Source of the DNA: Flavobacteriales bacterium
GTDB taxonomy: Bacteria > Bacteroidota > Bacteroidia > Flavobacteriales > Flavobacteriaceae
NCBI GenBank assembly: GCA_038212575.1
Contig: JBBQUI010000001.1
Span: forward strand, 1 to 43,056
DNA: 43,056 bases
Reading direction: 5' to 3'
Part shown: positions 7,420 to 43,056 of the stretch, one piece after another
How the letters are laid out: every line of letters begins with the position of its first letter
Numbering within the stretch: the stretch's first letter is position 1
Program-made: the position numbers and the translations under genes
The notes under the pieces: model-generated
What the model was told of the DNA's origin: nothing
Database searches by the model: none
Seen by the model: the letters and a program-made list of their open reading frames with translations, nothing else

Positions 7420-7454
7420 ATTGATTCTACTTCTATTTTAATTCTTAACTTCAA

Positions 7455-7520
7455 TTTCGTATTTCGTATATCGTATTTCGTACTTCGTACTTCGTATTTC
7501 GTCTTCGTACTTCGTATTTC
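7455..7520. repeat. Heptamer array (TTCGTAT/TTCGTAC) directly after the ftsW stop
   Basis: atttcgtatttcgtatatcgtatttcgtacttcgtacttcgtatttc... Confidence 0.9.
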
Positions 7521-8717: not shown

Positions 8718-8803
8718 GTTTCTGGTTTCTGGTTTCTAGTTTCTGGTTTCTAAAATTTCGTATTTCCGATTTCGTATTTCGTATTTCGTATTTCGTATTT
8801 CAC
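8718..8803. repeat. Two adjacent heptamer arrays (TTTCTGG/TTTCTAG and TTTCGTA) at the murD-ftsW junction
   Basis: gtttctggtttctggtttctagtttctggtttc followed by atttcgtatttccgatttcgtatttcgtatttcgtatttcg. Confidence 0.9.
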
Positions 8804-18170: not shown

Positions 18171-18255
18171 AGGTTTCAGGTTTCAGGTTTCAGGTTTCAG
18201 GTTTCAGGTTTTTAAAAAAAAACATTTTTCCCATATAACTCAATACTCAATACTT
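18171..18255. repeat. Heptamer arrays (AGGTTTC)x5+ and ACTCAAT repeats between hydrolase and engB
   Basis: aggtttcaggtttcaggtttcaggtttcaggtttcaggttt starts immediately after the stop codon; actcaatactcaatact precedes the next start. Confidence 0.9.
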
Positions 18256-18880: not shown

Positions 18881-19219
18881 TTATTCCTTTTTCAGCTCTA
18901 ACTTTTCTGCAAAATAATCACAGAAATCGCGCATTGTGGCGCTCATTTTATCATCATTTGTAGCGCGTTGAAACGTATCTGCCATGGCGCTCAAGGTTTG
19001 GTGAAAAAAGATTTTCATTTCGTCCACGGGCATGTCTTTGGCCCAAAGATCTATTCTAAGCGATTCCTTTTTTTTACTGTCCCAAACAGAAAGCATCACC
19101 GCCTTGGTTTCTTCGTTTGAAACACCACCGTCTTCCGCAGTCCAACGAATGGTTTCGGGAATTTTGTTTTCGTCAAGACCTACATTTAGTTTTATTTCAG
19201 AAGTATGTTTTATTGCCAT
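18881..19219 (-). CDS. gldC: Gliding motility protein GldC
   Basis: LDENKIPE, WTAEDGG, LRIDLW, DMPVDEMKIFFHQ; downstream of gldB. Confidence 0.93.
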   Translation of the reverse strand: MAIKHTSEIKLNVGLDENKIPETIRWTAEDGGVSNEETKAVMLSVWDSKKKESLRIDLWAKDMPVDEMKIFFHQTLSAMADTFQRATNDDKMSATMRDFCDYFAEKLELKKE

Positions 19220-20175
19220 TATTTCTTTGGTTTGTATTTTGAATTTTCAAATATTTCGTCAGCATCCGTTACCATTAATTGCTGAACGTTTGTGTCGTTA
19301 TTTCCCATATAGGCACGTACAATTTTCCAACCCAAATAACGGCCCAACATTCCAGGGGATTCGTTGTCTATTTCGAGATAGAATTTTGAAAATGGCGCAG
19401 GGCTTATAAATCGCGCGCCAAGCTTGGGATCGGTGCTATAAAGCAATTCCTTCTCCACAAAATAGCGCCACATATATTCTTCATTTTCTTCGGCCCATTG
19501 AAATTCTTCTTCGGTGTAACCTATTTTTTCGGCATCGGAAATGTTTGGAAGCCAAAGATCCTTCAAATAAAGTTGTTTGCCGTAATATATAATTTGACCT
19601 AAAAAAGTAGCTTTGCTTGGTGGTTTTATATACTTCCTTGCATAAGTATCCGCCACATCAGGCCCAATCTGCGTGGGCTTCATCTCCTTCGAAATATACT
19701 TATCAATTACTTCGTAAAAATGATGGTTGCTGCCTAAATAATTATCCAACCCAATAACCAACATATTTTCAGCAAGAATCACTTTATTACGATAATCTAC
19801 GTCTGAAGTTGCGGTTACAACAATGGGCGTCTGAAATTTTGGAAAATAATATTTTATATGCTGAAACAGTGGAAGGAGAGCTTCATTCAATGCTTCATCA
19901 TTTGGAAATGTTTTCGCCACTTCATTTTCAAGTTGATCTTGAAGTGTGTCAGTCAATTTTTCCACCCAAATACTGTCGCTGTATTGCTTCGGAAAAAAAG
20001 CTGGGTATTCCGCTTTCAACTTTGGAAGATCTGCCGGAGTGGCGTTTGCAAATTCTTTGTCGAAACGAACTATTTCAACATTTATAGGAATTTTTCCAAT
20101 TTCCTTTTCAACTTTACTTTCATTGTTGCAAGAAAAAAGGAGAACCCCGAAAAGAAGCATTACAAAATATTTCAT
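19219..20175 (-). CDS. gldB: Gliding motility lipoprotein GldB
   Basis: Lipobox LFSC, LDNYLG, APFSKFYLEIDNESPG, SKYKPKK. Confidence 0.93.
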   Translation of the reverse strand: MKYFVMLLFGVLLFSCNNESKVEKEIGKIPINVEIVRFDKEFANATPADLPKLKAEYPAFFPKQYSDSIWVEKLTDTLQDQLENEVAKTFPNDEALNEALLPLFQHIKYYFPKFQTPIVVTATSDVDYRNKVILAENMLVIGLDNYLGSNHHFYEVIDKYISKEMKPTQIGPDVADTYARKYIKPPSKATFLGQIIYYGKQLYLKDLWLPNISDAEKIGYTEEEFQWAEENEEYMWRYFVEKELLYSTDPKLGARFISPAPFSKFYLEIDNESPGMLGRYLGWKIVRAYMGNNDTNVQQLMVTDADEIFENSKYKPKK

Positions 20176-20261
20176 CTGTATAGAATATTTGAGAAATAGG
20201 AAGATGGCGTGCCCAAATTACCAATTTGAGTTAATTTACAATTTGCTAAAGTGCATTTCAT
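20172..20261 (-). promoter_or_regulatory. Conserved ~90-nt 5' leader / 29-codon uORF (MKCTLANCKLTQIGNLGTPSSYFSNILYR) overlapping the gldB start
   Basis: Aligns with 42192-42282; uORF stop overlaps the gldB start as ATGA; upstream -7 box TACCTTTG at 20334-20341. Confidence 0.55.
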
Positions 20262-20369
20262 AATAGAAAAAATGTTATAGTGGGTTAACGCCATTCCTTT
20301 TTATTAATTTTATCTTTAACAACTTTTGCGGTGCAAAGGTATTATTATTAAAGATTAAAAACACAGAAA

Positions 20370-21158
20370 ATGCAAACCGAAAAAGTTATAGATCATATTG
20401 TAAATTGGTTAAAAACCTATGCAGTAAACGCAAAAATGGATGGCTTTGTAATTGGTATCAGTGGAGGTATTGATTCTGCAGTAACCTCAGCTTTATGCGC
20501 CAAAACTGGGCTTGACCTTTTATGTGTAGAAATGCCCATACACCAACCCCCCTCTCAAGTTAGTCGTGCCTATAACCATATAACTTGGCTAAAAGAAAAT
20601 TTTTCCAGCGTTAAAAAAATTGAGGTAAACCTTACGCCAGTTTTTGATTCCCTGATTGATACTTTGCCAAAAGTTGAAAAAGAAGAAGATCGTTTTATGT
20701 CACTGGCAAACACTCGCGCCCGTTTGCGCATGACAACGCTTTATTATTTTGCTGCCCTACACAAATATTTGGTGGCAGGTACCGGTAATAAAGTGGAGGA
20801 TTTTGGTGTGGGTTTTTATACAAAATATGGCGACGGCGGTGTGGATTTAAGCCCGATAGCCGATTTGATGAAAAGTGAAGTTTACCAAATTGCCCGACAT
20901 TTGGGAATAAATAAAGAAATAATTGAAGCAGCGCCAACCGATGGATTATGGGGCGATGACCGCACCGATGAAGACCAGCTTGGCGCAAGCTACGACGAAT
21001 TGGAATGGGCCATGAAGATGAAAGAAGCTGGTAAAACCAGTTCAGATTTTTCTGGAAGGCAACAAGTGGTTTTTGATATTTATAATAAACTGAACAAAGC
21101 CAATCAGCACAAAATGGTTCCGATTCCCGTTTGCGAAATCCCCAAAGAACTGAAGTAA
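20370..21158 (+). CDS. nadE: NH3-dependent NAD+ synthetase
   Basis: GISGGIDSAV, NTRARLRM, GTGNKVED, TKYGDGG, APTDGLW; no glutaminase domain. Confidence 0.97.
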   Translation: MQTEKVIDHIVNWLKTYAVNAKMDGFVIGISGGIDSAVTSALCAKTGLDLLCVEMPIHQPPSQVSRAYNHITWLKENFSSVKKIEVNLTPVFDSLIDTLPKVEKEEDRFMSLANTRARLRMTTLYYFAALHKYLVAGTGNKVEDFGVGFYTKYGDGGVDLSPIADLMKSEVYQIARHLGINKEIIEAAPTDGLWGDDRTDEDQLGASYDELEWAMKMKEAGKTSSDFSGRQQVVFDIYNKLNKANQHKMVPIPVCEIPKELK

Positions 21159-21955: not shown

Positions 21956-23914
21956 CTACAACACTCTGTTCAATTTTTCGGAAAGCACTTTTTTTAGACT
22001 TATGTAATCCACAATTTCTTGCAGACCCGTTTCCTTTTCAGGATTGTTTTCCTGCTTCATCGTTTCGGAAAGTTCATTTATTTTTTGGGAAACCAAATGC
22101 CTGCGAAGGTTTAGAATAGTTTCACTAACCATTTGGGCAATGGTCTGTTCTTTTTCTTTTACATAAATTTCCTTACGTTCCCAGTTGTGGAGTATGTACC
22201 TTTCCTCTTCCATCAAAACGTGGGTAATTGCAGATGCCATTTCTGGCTGCAGTTCATTAATAAAACTTTCTGCTTTGGCTTCCGGGTTTTGGGTAAAACG
22301 GTTTACCACTTCATAATACAAATCTTTAAATTCTTGATTTGTAAACTCTATTTCGTCTTCCTGCAAATCCAAAAATATTTTCTCGTAAACTCTCGATTTG
22401 TGAATCTCTGGCTTTAATGAAATTTCACCCTTTTCGTTTGCCTCAATAATTAATTCCTCAAAATCTTCTTCAACATTCCCATAGAGCAACAACAACTCAA
22501 TGATTTTTTGTTCTAACTGAAACTGTACATCTACTTTTTCAATCTTTTTTTCTGAAGAAATAACTTCAAACGCTTCATGGGGAATTTCAGCTTTTTTTGA
22601 AGCATCTTTTCTCTCCTTTTGAAAAATCTGCGCAAGTGTATTGAAAAGAACTTGCTCTGAAATATCCATAATGCGCGAACATTCCTTTATATATACTTCG
22701 CGCTTGATTACATCTGGAATTTTAGCAATACTATGTACCATATCGTGTATGGTTTCAGCCTTTTTTATAGGATCATTTTTTGCATCGGAAGCGAGCAGCG
22801 AGGCTTTAAAAGTGATAAAATCCTTGGCGTTTTCTTCCAAATAGAGCGTGAGTTCTTCCAACGAATTTTTACGCGAAAAACTGTCCGGATCCTCCCCTTC
22901 TGGAAAAGTGCAGATTTTCACGTTCATCCCCTGCTCCAAAATTAAGTCGATACCCCGAAGCGATGCGCGAAGACCCGCCGCATCACCGTCAAAAAGAACG
23001 GTTATGTTTTTGGTAAGTCTATTTATCAACCGAATCTGTTCCGAAGTCAAAGCAGTTCCTGAAGAGGAAACTACATTGTGGATTCCTGTTTGATAAAACT
23101 GGATAACATCGGTATAACCCTCAACCAAATAGCAATTGTCTTCTTTGGCAATACTTTGTTTGGCGTGAAAAATACCGTAGAGCACTTTGCTTTTATGGTA
23201 AATATCGCTTTCGGGAGAGTTTAAATATTTCGCCGCTTTTTTATCCGAAGTTAAGATCCGCCCGCCAAAACCAAGCGTGCGACCACTCATACTAAGGATT
23301 GGGAACATTACCCTTCCCTTAAAACGGTCGAACTGTTTTTCTTCTTTTACTATGGACAAACCTGTTTTTTCGAGAAACTCTAGCTTGTAGCCTTTTTTTA
23401 TGGCGTGGCTGGTAAAGGCATCCCAAGAATCAGGCGAATAACCGAGCTCAAACTTTTTGATAGTTTCATCAGTAAAGCCACGTTCCTTAAAATAGGAAAG
23501 ACCGATGGCTTTGCCCTCCTCGGTTTTTAGTAATGTACTGTGGAAATAATCTTTGGCGAATTCGCTTACCAAATAAAGACTTTCCCTCTCGTTGGCCTGT
23601 TCTTTATCTTCGGCGGTTTGCTCGGTTTCCTCTACTTCAATCCCGTACTTTTTCGCCAAGAATTTTATGGCTTCGGGATAAGTGAAGTGTTCATGCTCCA
23701 TCAAAAATGCCACCACATTCCCCCCTTTTCCGCTACTGAAATCCTTCCAAATCTGTTTTACGGGACTTACCATAAAACTTGGCGAACGTTCGTCAGTAAA
23801 CGGACTGAGGCCTTTGTAGTTGCTGCCCGATTTCTTCAACTGCACAAAATCGCCGATTACCTCCTCTACTCGAGCAGTTTCAAAAACGTTGTCTATGGTG
23901 GTTTTGGAGATCAG
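21956..23914 (-). CDS. dnaG: DNA primase; N-terminus extends beyond the ORF-track start to a probable CTG at 23914
   Basis: In-frame (L/M)ISKTTIDNVFETARVEEVIGDFVQLKKSG; FKGRVMFPI, KYLNSPES, VEGYTDV, FDGDAAG, DPD. Confidence 0.95.
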   Translation of the reverse strand: MISKTTIDNVFETARVEEVIGDFVQLKKSGSNYKGLSPFTDERSPSFMVSPVKQIWKDFSSGKGGNVVAFLMEHEHFTYPEAIKFLAKKYGIEVEETEQTAEDKEQANERESLYLVSEFAKDYFHSTLLKTEEGKAIGLSYFKERGFTDETIKKFELGYSPDSWDAFTSHAIKKGYKLEFLEKTGLSIVKEEKQFDRFKGRVMFPILSMSGRTLGFGGRILTSDKKAAKYLNSPESDIYHKSKVLYGIFHAKQSIAKEDNCYLVEGYTDVIQFYQTGIHNVVSSSGTALTSEQIRLINRLTKNITVLFDGDAAGLRASLRGIDLILEQGMNVKICTFPEGEDPDSFSRKNSLEELTLYLEENAKDFITFKASLLASDAKNDPIKKAETIHDMVHSIAKIPDVIKREVYIKECSRIMDISEQVLFNTLAQIFQKERKDASKKAEIPHEAFEVISSEKKIEKVDVQFQLEQKIIELLLLYGNVEEDFEELIIEANEKGEISLKPEIHKSRVYEKIFLDLQEDEIEFTNQEFKDLYYEVVNRFTQNPEAKAESFINELQPEMASAITHVLMEEERYILHNWERKEIYVKEKEQTIAQMVSETILNLRRHLVSQKINELSETMKQENNPEKETGLQEIVDYISLKKVLSEKLNRVL

Positions 23915-23966
23915 ATTGTTGGAATTTTAGGTTGTTGGACTTTTAGATTGTCGGATTGATAGATTT
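23912..23966. repeat. Degenerate 8-mer array (GATTGTTG-type) abutting the dnaG start
   Basis: agattgtt ggaatttt aggttgtt ggactttt agattgtc ggattgat agattttt. Confidence 0.75.
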
Positions 23967-24148
23967 TTGTTGTGTAAAAATAGGGATTTCTTTATAGTTT
24001 CAAGTTTAAAGTTGCAAGTATAGATGGAAAGCTGGCCGTTCTATATTTCTTGCTGCTTTATGTCTCTAATAACTATTTGCCATAAAAAAATTAAGCCCTG
24101 CAAACTTTCATCTACAGAGCTTTTTTCAAAAAATAATTTGTTATTGAA

Positions 24149-27483: not shown

Positions 27484-27600
27484 TCCTTCGCTGAAAAAGC
27501 TTCGGAGGACGAGTGTTTCAGGTTGCAGGTTTCAGGTTTCAAGTTGCAGGTTGCAGGTTGAAAAAACAAATTCACAAACTCACAGATTCACAAATTCACT
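27484..27600. repeat. REP-like palindrome followed by a 7-mer (GGTTTCA/GGTTGCA) array and an 8-mer (AAATTCAC) array
   Basis: tccttcgctgaaaaagcttcggagga; ggttgca ggtttca ggtttca agttgca ggttgca; aaattcac aaactcac agattcac aaattcac. Confidence 0.8.
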
Positions 27601-40293: not shown

Positions 40294-42195
40294 TTATTGT
40301 ATATTTTGTTTTAAAAGTATTTTTGTTTTGTCCAGCCGGGCGATGGATCGCAAAAAATCTCGGTAATTTTCATATTCAGAAGGAGGATACTCGCCTTTGT
40401 TAATGAGTATTTTTCGACTGTAGATTAATTTGTTCTCAGAAGTTTTGCTGAAACCCATTTCATATTTTCCGAATTTGGTTTCCAAAATGGTTTCTTCCGG
40501 AAGCCCATCTATCTCAAAATTTTCAGGTATTTCTACTTCTACCGTATCAACATCAACATATCCGGTTCCTATAAAAAGATTTTGTTTTCGATTTTCAATG
40601 CGCGGCGGAATGTATTGGTTTTGGTTGAAAATATTGGCGCAGAAAAGATAATCGCTGCCCACGGCATTTGCATAATTGGGAATGTTTAGCGATAAATTTT
40701 CAGTGAAAACTACTTCCTCCCTATCGTTATTCAATTTCACATCGGTTATGGAAAAGCCATTGATGTAGCTCCATCTGTTTTTGTATTTTTCGTCCAAATC
40801 TTCCTTTTTTTCTTTCGGAAGCAAATACTTGTCATCATACTGAAGCCCTCTGGAAATACCTTGAAAACTGGCAGTTACGTTTCCTTCTTTATCAACTTTT
40901 ACTTTTGAAATATTTTCTTGGGAATTTTCTTCGGTTTTGTAAATTTTTGTATGTGCAATTTTCCCTCCTTCGGGAGTAATTATCAATACATCCCTATCGT
41001 CAGTAAAATCGCCAATAAACCCATACGGTGCATCTTGACTTGTACATTCCAGCCATGTCATTTCTTCCCCATCGGGAATGGCCAAAATCATATGGTTTCC
41101 CTGTAGCGACGAAAAATCTGAAACAATATTTCGTTCACTGGTATCGCCATACAATATGGTATAATAGGAAGGAACGCCAACAGCTTCAAGCATAGCTTTT
41201 GTGTAATTTGTCAATGCCTTGCAATCGCCATAACTCAGTTTATCAACCTCTGAAGCCAACATAGGTTTCCAACCGCCAATGCCAATCTGGATGCTTACGT
41301 AACGCACTTTGTCTTGAAGGAATTGATAAATTTTTCGAGCCTTCCCTTCATTGGTCGTTTCATTTGCAACAAGGCTTTTTATTCGTGCCAATGTGCCTTC
41401 CGGCAAATCACGAACATCTGAAAGCAAACTTTTGTCCATCCAACTTCCAAATTGCTGCCAATCCTTGCCTGAGCCAGAAGTACCTTTCAACCTAAAATTG
41501 TCAAGTGCGATGGTTACGTTTGGAAAAATATCGCTAGGCGAAGGACTGTGTTCCTCATATCGAATTGTAGTAAGATTTGATGCCGAAAAAGTGATTTCCT
41601 CAGGAGTTTCAGAAATTGTTATATCCCAACCTTCCAGATTTTTGGACTTGTATTTTGGTTTGTTTAATGGATCATACTTAATCTTTAAAACACTTTTTTG
41701 GGTACTTTCAGCATATCCGCTTAAAGGATACCAAGGGCCTATGAATGCAGAATCACCCGTTTCGGTTTCGCTGTCAAAAACTACAATATAAGGATAGGTT
41801 GTTGGAGTATATTTTAAATACAACGCTCGCGAATCCATGTACATATTATTGCCCGTGCGGCTCACGTCCATAAAATCTTTCTTTTTAAAGTGCTCAATTT
41901 CCTTTCCCAAGGCATTGTAGATTCGCACTTCAACATCCTTAACCCGCGAGTTTTCATTATAATATTCATAAAGGTTGGTATCTTCATCACCAAGTTTGTT
42001 AAAAACCGCGATAACCCGGTGCGCTTTTTCCTTCATTTTGCCTACGTCGGTAACATCAATTTCAACCAATTCATCAATCAAAACACTGTTGGAATATTCT
42101 ATAAGCTCTTTTTTAATGGAGGCTATGGAATAGTCCTTTTGGGCATAAATATGAACTGAACAAAGAAGTACTGCCAAGCAAAAAATGATTTTCAT
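40294..42195 (-). CDS. DUF3857/transglutaminase-like exported protein with intact Cys-His
   Basis: VRYVSIQIGIGGWKP, YGDCKAL, NHMILAI, WLECT. Confidence 0.9.
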   Translation of the reverse strand: MKIIFCLAVLLCSVHIYAQKDYSIASIKKELIEYSNSVLIDELVEIDVTDVGKMKEKAHRVIAVFNKLGDEDTNLYEYYNENSRVKDVEVRIYNALGKEIEHFKKKDFMDVSRTGNNMYMDSRALYLKYTPTTYPYIVVFDSETETGDSAFIGPWYPLSGYAESTQKSVLKIKYDPLNKPKYKSKNLEGWDITISETPEEITFSASNLTTIRYEEHSPSPSDIFPNVTIALDNFRLKGTSGSGKDWQQFGSWMDKSLLSDVRDLPEGTLARIKSLVANETTNEGKARKIYQFLQDKVRYVSIQIGIGGWKPMLASEVDKLSYGDCKALTNYTKAMLEAVGVPSYYTILYGDTSERNIVSDFSSLQGNHMILAIPDGEEMTWLECTSQDAPYGFIGDFTDDRDVLIITPEGGKIAHTKIYKTEENSQENISKVKVDKEGNVTASFQGISRGLQYDDKYLLPKEKKEDLDEKYKNRWSYINGFSITDVKLNNDREEVVFTENLSLNIPNYANAVGSDYLFCANIFNQNQYIPPRIENRKQNLFIGTGYVDVDTVEVEIPENFEIDGLPEETILETKFGKYEMGFSKTSENKLIYSRKILINKGEYPPSEYENYRDFLRSIARLDKTKILLKQNIQ

Positions 42196-42282
42196 CCGAA
42201 TAAAATATTTGTGAAATTAGGAAGATGGAATGCCCAAACCATACCTTTTAATTAATTTGAAAATTTTAAATGGGCATTTCAT
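42192..42282 (-). promoter_or_regulatory. Second copy of the ~90-nt 5' leader (uORF MKCPFKIFKLIKRYGLGIPSS, 42217-42282)
   Basis: Aligns to 20172-20261; contains an ATGAAATGCCCA...TGGGCATTCCAT stem. Confidence 0.55.
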
Positions 42283-42345: not shown

Positions 42346-42798
42346 TTATTCTCTTCTTTTTGAATCGATCCAAATTGTGACGGGGCCGTTATTAATAAGT
42401 GCAACGTCCATCATCGCTCCGAAGCTTCCAGTTTTAACCTTCTTATTTGTTTCATTTTCAAGCTGAAGGAGAAATTTTTTATAAAGTGGAATGGCGATTT
42501 CGGGCTTTGCGGCATTTATGAAAGAAGGCCGATTTCCCTTTTTAGTATTTGCGTGAAGTGTAAATTGGCTTACTACTAAACAATCGCCATCAACATCTTG
42601 CACTGAAAGATTCATAGCATCATTTTCATCTGAAAAAATCCGCAAACGGGCAATTTTTCCAGCTAACCATTTGAAGTCTTCTTGAGTATCCTCGGCTTCA
42701 ATTCCCAATAAAATTAGCAGTCCCTGATTTATTTCAGAAAAAATATTTCCTTCAATGGTTACGGATGCTTTTTTTACTCTTTGGATTAAAACGCGCAT
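42346..42798 (-). CDS. dtd: D-aminoacyl-tRNA deacylase
   Basis: [31 protein letters not shown]. Confidence 0.98.
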
Positions 42799-42896
42799 TT
42801 AGATTATTGGATTGTTAGATTCTTAGATTATTGGATTGTTAGATTATTGGATTGTTAGATTATTGGATTCTTAGATTGTTGGATTGTTGGATTATT
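42799..42896. repeat. 8-mer tandem array (AGATTATT/GGATTGTT/AGATTCTT), about 12 units, abutting the dtd start
   Basis: ttagattattggattgttagattcttagattattggattgttagattattggattgtt... Confidence 0.92.
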
Positions 42897-42915
42897 TGTT
42901 TCTATTGATGCTGCA

Positions 42916-43056
42916 GAGTCTATTCAATTAAGTGTGTCAATTTATAATTTAATAAATTAGACATATGAAAAGTACAGAAATTAATTTGGACATGGAAGCC
43001 CTCATCAAACAAATGGGTGATGAGCTTCGTTCTGGCAAGCCTCTTACCGGAGCTGG
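42916..43056 (+). mobile_element. Left end of a probable IS256-family insertion sequence (truncated by window end)
   Basis: Candidate terminal IR GAGTCTATTCAATTAAGTGTGTCAA followed by an ORF whose N-terminus resembles Bacteroidota IS256 transposases; only 30 codons visible. Confidence 0.65.
42965..43056 (+). CDS. Partial probable IS256-family transposase (MKSTEINLDMEALIKQMGDELRSGKPLTGAG...)
   Basis: Hand translation, open to window end; LRSGKPLTG resembles the N-terminal motif of IS256 transposases. Confidence 0.62.
   Translation, partial: MKSTEINLDMEALIKQMGDELRSGKPLTGA

Follow-up and report, generated by a model that had tools for sequence, protein, structure and literature searches.

A start-codon insertion of about 86 bp in Flavobacteriaceae, probably a miniature IS110-family element

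Two similar stretches of DNA that precede gldB and a DUF3857 gene in the window (the whole stretch analysed, 43,056 nucleotides) belong to an IS110-associated miniature element of a new variety, and are not a cis-regulatory RNA or a leader peptide. The element is an insertion of about 86 bp, which orthologous sites either have as one exact block or lack, as the clean empty sites of relatives show. It is placed within (A/T)TGAA, after a start codon, and its own ATG forms its end; quite probably it is a transposase-less IS110 miniature moved in trans by an RNA-guided bridge recombinase, and we infer that it passes through a single-stranded DNA circle folded as a dumbbell and that its copies are tolerated at start codons.

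Two copies in the window and their family

Copy 1 (20173..20258, minus strand, 86 bp) runs from an AA core to an element-coded ATG that now starts gldB, the gene for a gliding motility lipoprotein (19219..20175, minus strand; TIGR03514, E 4e-139), after which gldC follows (18881-19219; TIGR03515). Its left target side (20259..20261, minus strand) is the original host ATG, as judged from gldB orthologues without the element, which read ...ttttctact-ATGAAG/ATGAAA at this position. Copy 2 (42193..42279, minus strand, 87 bp in the window) ends in the ATG of the DUF3857/DUF3858 gene (40294..42195, minus strand; PF12969, PF12970), and comparison with DUF3857 orthologues places the original ATG of that gene at the left target side (42280..42282, minus strand). 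The empty sites of relatives are anchored by nadE, the divergent neighbour of gldB (20370..21158, plus strand; TIGR00552), and by dtd, upstream of the DUF3857 gene (42346..42798, minus strand; TIGR00256). The initial annotation had given the coordinates of both stretches, with their ends at the start codons of the two genes, and had aligned them colinearly with a single 1-nt gap. We find the same, on the minus strand, and the likeness is not due to chance, since a copy 1 query recovers copy 2 from the source genome at E 3e-11 (BLASTN).

The consensus of the Bacteroidota -7 promoter box is TAnnTTTG, and a candidate box for gldB, TACCTTTG, lies upstream of copy 1 (20334..20341, minus strand). 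It is not significant alone, with two matches where 4.8 are expected by chance; it is kept in nearly all 30 gldB orthologues. If this is the gldB promoter box, copy 1 could sit in the 5' leader.

The feature had been described as a pair, which is wrong: the source genome holds 15 clear copies (E<=1.2e-8) and one decayed copy by iterated nhmmer, and 16 by a sequence-only model, R1. All 15 clear copies end on an ATG that opens an ORF, of 66-633 codons, and the copies share one orientation at start codons. The genes downstream are unrelated (dCMP deaminase, a beta-lactamase-fold hydrolase, an HTH protein, dehydroquinase, an epimerase, PorP, LolA, cyclophilin, DUF4260, a glycosyltransferase and three without a Pfam match), which argues against the shared cell-envelope role that had been suggested for the first two copies. 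The alternative offered in the same annotation, a small dispersed element, is borne out by the 15 clear copies and the empty orthologous sites.

Model R1 gives 572 matches across 56 of the 57 genomes of the genus. More widely, a BLAST search with one copy detects the element in 28 of 401 genomes of the family and 22 of 302 genera, two candidates per genome being scored; a separate BLAST search gives no match in 16 genomes of other families. A search for the exact left end returned 61 matches, several of them chance hits in other phyla; those in named records are mostly from Flavobacteriaceae (Aequorivita, Snuella, Paucihalobacter, Sinomicrobium and others). The window itself probably comes from Aequorivita. 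No known RNA family was matched: Rfam gives 0 matches in the window at the gathering threshold, and only chance matches around copy 1 at E<=10.

At 13 loci the element contains nested short GC-rich palindromes, which we take to be REP-like; their commonest position is the centre of the inner inverted segment described below, which they would disable. Repeats of other kinds are present between genes of the window, as tandem 7- and 8-mers of several types (42801-42900, 23913-23968, 18171-18215, 27506-27565, 7453-7510, 8754-8801 and 1-56). An ORF at 42966-43056 begins just past an 8-mer array and runs off the contig end; our impression is that it is the start of a transposase.

Empty sites, target and start-codon bias

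Five of 30 orthologues are filled at the gldB locus. The nadE-gldB gap is 194 bp in these five, compared with 107-109 bp in 18 of the 25 empty orthologues; the other seven also lack the element but carry other insertions. At copy 1 a contig of run X2 skips exactly 86 bases. The DUF3857 locus is filled in 7 of 30 orthologues, the dtd-DUF3857 gap being 150 bp in the window and 60-66 bp in 23 of the 30, and the five nearest relatives (87-94% protein identity) lack the element. Two further loci, those of the glycosyltransferase and of dCMP deaminase, are filled in 10 of 30 and 4 of 30. Within the locus comparison L393 is mis-oriented and L395 ambiguous.

Empty alleles of the glycosyltransferase locus have a TTG start in 17 of the 18 that are readable, whereas in each of the 10 filled alleles TTG stands to the left of the element and ATG to its right. 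The empty site of the dCMP deaminase locus reads ATGAAG in most orthologues, and the filled site of the source genome has ATGAAA on the left and ATGAAG on the right. Together these patterns imply that the right ATG is coded by the element and that the crossover falls inside TGAA. Target-site duplication is excluded by the TTG-left/ATG-right alleles; the target is not duplicated and the start codon is rebuilt, even from TTG to ATG. The crossover thus lies in a short core common to target and donor, as in the definition of IS110 elements (PMC11208160).

The history of the two window sites appears to differ. The DUF3857 site is filled in distant species (L335, L337-L339, L347 and L351) and empty in the closest ones, and the distant copies at this site are no nearer to copy 2 than are copies elsewhere; the pattern reflects either repeated insertion at one site or an old insertion with precise loss. 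Three gldB copies in other genomes (L033, L036 and L037) are nearer to copy 1, which suggests one shared event.

Across the family, 96 of 103 independent sites with enough flank open an ORF of at least 60 codons. The share expected from non-coding or start-like motif sites in the source genome is 0.63-0.76, a null that rests on rough gene calls, and against it the bias has P 5e-12 to 2.5e-5 with 95 of 103 sites, and P 0.006-0.08 for the source genome alone (15 of 16). Left out before counting were five mis-anchored or duplicate rows and one skipped row, and L138 and one truncated row were also left out of the uORF counts given below. A T occupies position -1 at 74% of insertion sites, compared with 42% of ATGAA starts genome-wide. 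Full-length elements of the related clade described below open an ORF of at least 60 codons in 26 of 48 readable cases (counted by hand), a share that target sequence and selection can explain. The difference from the miniatures means that the guide alone cannot account for their strictness, and we suggest that better survival at start codons probably contributes to it.

Related IS110 elements and the inner segment

Among the matches listed for 30 IS110 loci of the genus, L099 is the only one with related ends. Its protein is an IS110 recombinase (NF033542; PF01548 and PF02371) with weak hits to IS621 and ISCro4, and a metagenome scan yielded 80 relatives. The left ends of this clade begin ATGAAA and can be aligned to bases 1-46 of the miniature (alignment score 43, compared with 19.5 in shuffles; 1/2000), those of L227 and L234 being nearest, and the right ends are A/T-rich, finishing ...ACAG before ATGAAA. 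Miniatures also directly adjoin full elements. The alignments indicate that the ends of the miniature are homologous to those of an element with DEDD (PF01548) and PF02371 domains, related and not identical. A further resemblance, of TTTTATACAGATGAA (FIQMK) in coding sequences of another IS110 group (L102-L119) to the right end of the miniature, we treat as coincidence.

In this clade the left end is short (74-88 bp) and the right end long (181-242 bp), with an RNA downstream of the gene that is predicted to fold into two hairpins with big internal loops. The target-guide loop has a T-run followed by nnnATGAAA and agrees with the left flank at position -2 in 43 of 49 elements and at -1 in 47 of 49 (21.5 and 14.0 when shuffled), with no match at -3; nnnATGAAA in the second loop, the donor guide, agrees with the element's own right end in 45 of 47 (11.9 when shuffled), kin not being independent in these or the other shuffle tests. 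The complement of the top strand precedes the match to the bottom strand, and on these features we assign the right-end RNA as a predicted bridge RNA in IS1111 order. We identified no right-donor guide in the clade RNA. The sub-terminal inverted repeats of 7-17 bp that are typical of IS1111 are not a trait of the clade, the longest perfect inverted repeat within 30-nt end windows being 4-6 bp in 24 of 30 elements and 7-8 bp in six.

A word of 7-9 bases at +25..+40 of the left end (for example ACACACG, ACAAACG, ACACAGG or ACCAACC) covaries with a word of the same sense in the second RNA loop (loci L099, L187-L220, L227 and L234), with 102 matches compared with 74 when shuffled (0/5000; 20 rows, several of them mis-parsed). 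The word could act as a third guide or, in the leader of the recombinase mRNA, as a protein-binding mimic. Five clade members (L221, L222, L232, L233 and L253) have AGGAAA, AGTAAA or AAGAAA in place of ATGAAA in both guides and ends, which would mean that they have been naturally reprogrammed to sites other than start codons. Miniatures and full elements are stacked in tandem at six loci (L224, L215, L219, L187, L149 and L431), and in some stacked full elements the target guide matches the family's own right end, as for insertion at each other's ends. Among the recombinase genes of L182, L227, L234, L358 and L359 several change frame at one A-run (...AGKKK), possibly a slippage or programmed frameshift site; L099 reads through it.

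Clade members occur in three genomes of the family and three of the phylum (401 searched for each), with one close member in 57 genus genomes; no full element with exactly the ends of the miniature was found in these three sets or in 10 miniature-bearing genomes. The donor guide AGATGAAA together with T at -1 of the target guide is found in L201 and L208, and no single element was found that matches the miniature in all of its guides and ends. In the genome that holds L149 a contig end truncates a clade member, and R1 has 9 matches. In the source genome PF02371 searches, tblastn and an RNA profile found no IS110 gene or bridge RNA, a result to be read as not found only, because the assembly has 90.6% completeness and repeats are often lost in assembly. 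In viral contigs the left-end motif has 23 matches, none of which passes the element profile; no bridge-RNA holder occurs among the matches listed. L185 shares the left flank of L099 but not the right, and the L099 contig may therefore be chimeric.

The interior of the miniature holds a segment, GGGCATTCCATCT(G/T), that is the reverse complement of the element's joined ends, CAG-ATG-AA-ATGCCC. In copy 2 it is recognised by covariation (42223..42235, minus strand) and in copy 1 it is decayed, with 6 mismatches in 15 (20202..20214, minus strand). The pairing of ATGAAATGCCCA with TGGGCATTCCAT noted earlier in copy 2 is real and covaries, but it makes up half of this inverted copy of the circle junction. 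In a 62-copy alignment, which includes old inserted copies and related kin, a few rows that share a locus, and a structure taken from the consensus, pairing is 95% in both helices, and two-sided changes number 9, compared with 1.2 in shuffles. Where miniatures abut full elements (16 rows), the inner segment has 68 mismatches to its own junction and 97 when permuted (0/5000, with two mis-parsed rows, L219 at 285 and L260 at 1764, included), and its changes follow both sides of the junction. The first core base faces a mismatch in 18 of 19 rows, the exception being mis-parsed; in the window family the base that faces the first core A is C in 56 sites, G in 10 and A in 7, and never T (73 sites). 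Full elements have no inner junction copy, the best of 35 listed having 4-5 mismatches in 14. Folded as single-stranded DNA circles, 9 of 16 other miniatures are strong (z <= -2.4), whereas the window copies (z -0.2 and -1.5) and a young copy (-1.3) are weak. No back-joint was found in assembled contigs (two comparisons, four runs each). The inner junction copy, present in the window family and in several sister miniatures, is a new feature.

The covariation would also be expected if the element were an IS110 miniature whose inner segment is kept for a role in mRNA and has none in transposition, pairing with the left ATG to hide a decoy start or to switch between ATGs, so that the host gene stays expressed. 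The left ATG and the next 8 bases can indeed pair with the inner segment in linear RNA, and the greater strictness of miniatures at start codons, relative to full elements, would fit such a role. Across families, however, the inner segment also follows the bases that precede the right ATG (CAG, CAT, CGA, CTG and CAC ends) and so mirrors the joined ends, a sequence that only the circle contains; a constant mismatch at the core would serve no obvious purpose in mRNA, and the linear RNA folds no better than shuffles (z -1.0 to +0.9). We consider this explanation unlikely, and prefer a role of the segment in the circle.

A quite different origin, as a classical MITE of a DDE transposase that duplicates ATGA(A) or as a miniature of HUH type (IS200/IS605, IS91), is very improbable. 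ATGAA usually stands on both flanks. HUH elements also insert without duplication, as seen here. The duplication that a classical MITE needs is nevertheless excluded by the TTG-left/ATG-right alleles, terminal inverted repeats are absent, and both ends match the IS110 clade.

The displaced ATG of gldB opens a uORF of 29 codons (20172-20261, minus strand) whose stop overlaps the gldB ATG, and translation confirms the initial description of 29 codons followed by an ATGA overlap. In copy 2 the stop at 21 codons is present as read, but the extra A on which it depends (42217) is missing from the contig of run X1 (possibly the source sample; depth 10). Copy 2 without this base is 86 bp long, as are other copies, and the 21-codon stop may thus be a strain or assembly variant. 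In the genus-type consensus the 29-codon frame is open and ends in ATGA, as in 24 of 32 ungapped copies of 86 nt, and changes that would create a stop are rather scarce (6 of 192 single changes, compared with 17 of 234 possible). Substitutions fall on the three codon positions as 96/113/100, synonymous and non-synonymous changes number 47/139 where 51/166 are possible, 16 of 43 length changes are divisible by three, and the ATGA overlap is kept at 37 of 102 sites overall and at 2 of 23 sites of the family-wide variant. We conclude that the uORF is incidental, without codon-level selection; in view of the open consensus and the scarce stops, translational coupling may give a slight benefit. A regulon-defining cis-regulatory RNA or leader-peptide module, the first suggestion made for the feature, would account for the single orientation at start codons in every case, the open consensus frame and the few stops, but is very improbable and is largely refuted by the empty sites, with most orthologues, the closest included, lacking the element, unrelated genes downstream and no linkage to one pathway, a codon pattern that shows no selection, an ATGA overlap seldom kept in the family-wide variant, ordinary linear folding energy and no Rfam match.

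Proposed mechanism and relation to known systems

In the mechanism that we propose for the IS110 miniature, the recombinase would excise the top strand as a small single-stranded circle, in which the inner segment would pair across the joined ends and give a dumbbell with a double-stranded donor site of about 14 bp and one core mismatch; the mismatch could prevent use of the inverted copy as a second donor. A target guide predicted to be close to ATTATGAAA would direct insertion at AT-rich NTGAAA sites, many of which would be start codons in the host bacteria. The old start codon would stay on the left and a new A/T-rich leader and ATG would arise on the right, and the gene would survive; copies at start codons would be tolerated because the A/T-rich tail and ATG of the element restore translation initiation. 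Inserted copies would then persist, and gather mutations and nested palindromic repeats. The predicted cognate element has a gene of the L227/L234 subclade preceded by ATGAAATGCCCATT, an end in TACAG before ATG, a target guide close to ATTATGAAA, xAGATGAAA as donor guide, and CCAACC within the second loop of the RNA.

An 86-bp duplex circle would be badly strained. IS621 and CazIS110-1 release single-stranded circles, and for CazIS110-1 double-stranded DNA is about 20-fold better at the LD-RT joint (10.1101/2025.10.25.684509, 10.64898/2026.08.31.748434). A circle that pairs across its own junction would solve the problems of both strain and donor quality. More tentatively, with the balance tipping slightly against it, we propose that these are minimal bridge-recombinase parasites of about 86-140 nt, whose single-stranded circles are self-splinted by the inverted junction copy into a double-stranded donor without second-strand synthesis, with a core mismatch protecting the splint, and which ride an IS110 clade guided to the start-codon context of Bacteroidota, rewriting 5' leaders and start codons across Flavobacteriaceae.

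The element explains a repeat in many Flavobacteriaceae genomes that resembles a regulon leader and would mislead the annotation of motifs and small ORFs. It provides a route by which selfish DNA can change translation starts without harm, at one orthologous locus from TTG to ATG. The self-splint, if true, bears on how a single-stranded excised circle becomes a good donor in bridge recombination, and gives a natural template for very short donors that anneal to themselves. The partner clade contributes further bridge RNAs, in which the guides vary naturally around a site that contains ATG. The element family and the self-splinting junction are undescribed in the literature consulted, though ISfinder, subscription papers or supplements may list the clade.

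IS900 and IS901 of Mycobacterium avium, which belong to the IS110 family, insert between the RBS and the start codon, and the miniature shares with them its insertion at translation-initiation regions. Unlike IS900, it inserts in sense after a Bacteroidota start codon and rebuilds an ATG. IS900 is full-length, and its hed ORF depends on the host RBS, borrowing host signals (PMC8141618). The excision of the top strand of CazIS110-1 and IS621 to single-stranded circles supplies the intermediate that the dumbbell model needs, and the available text of these reports does not describe an element that pairs its own junction (10.1101/2025.10.25.684509, 10.64898/2026.08.31.748434). The candidate clade resembles the IS1111 group, such as ISEc11, in its short left and long right ends and in its RNA order (PMC11187229, PMC11208160). 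It differs from ISEc11-type elements, as far as the available text describes them, in lacking sub-terminal inverted repeats, in guides that both end in ATGAAA and in the covariation of a further RNA word with a left-end site 25-35 bp inwards.

IS110-borne miniatures have a precedent in MITEPpu9, the ssr9 module of ISPpu9 (IS110 family) in Pseudomonas putida (PMC12288879). Like the element described here, MITEPpu9 is transposase-less, has IS110 ends and is found both alone and in tandem with the full element, and it is proposed to move in trans through minicircles, as we propose here (PMC12288879). MITEPpu9, in contrast, has a gene for an sRNA, and its targets are REP sequences, with an AG core (PMC12288879), whereas the Flavobacteriaceae element is 86 bp long, enters start codons inside TGAA, brings a new ATG and contains its own junction in inverted form.
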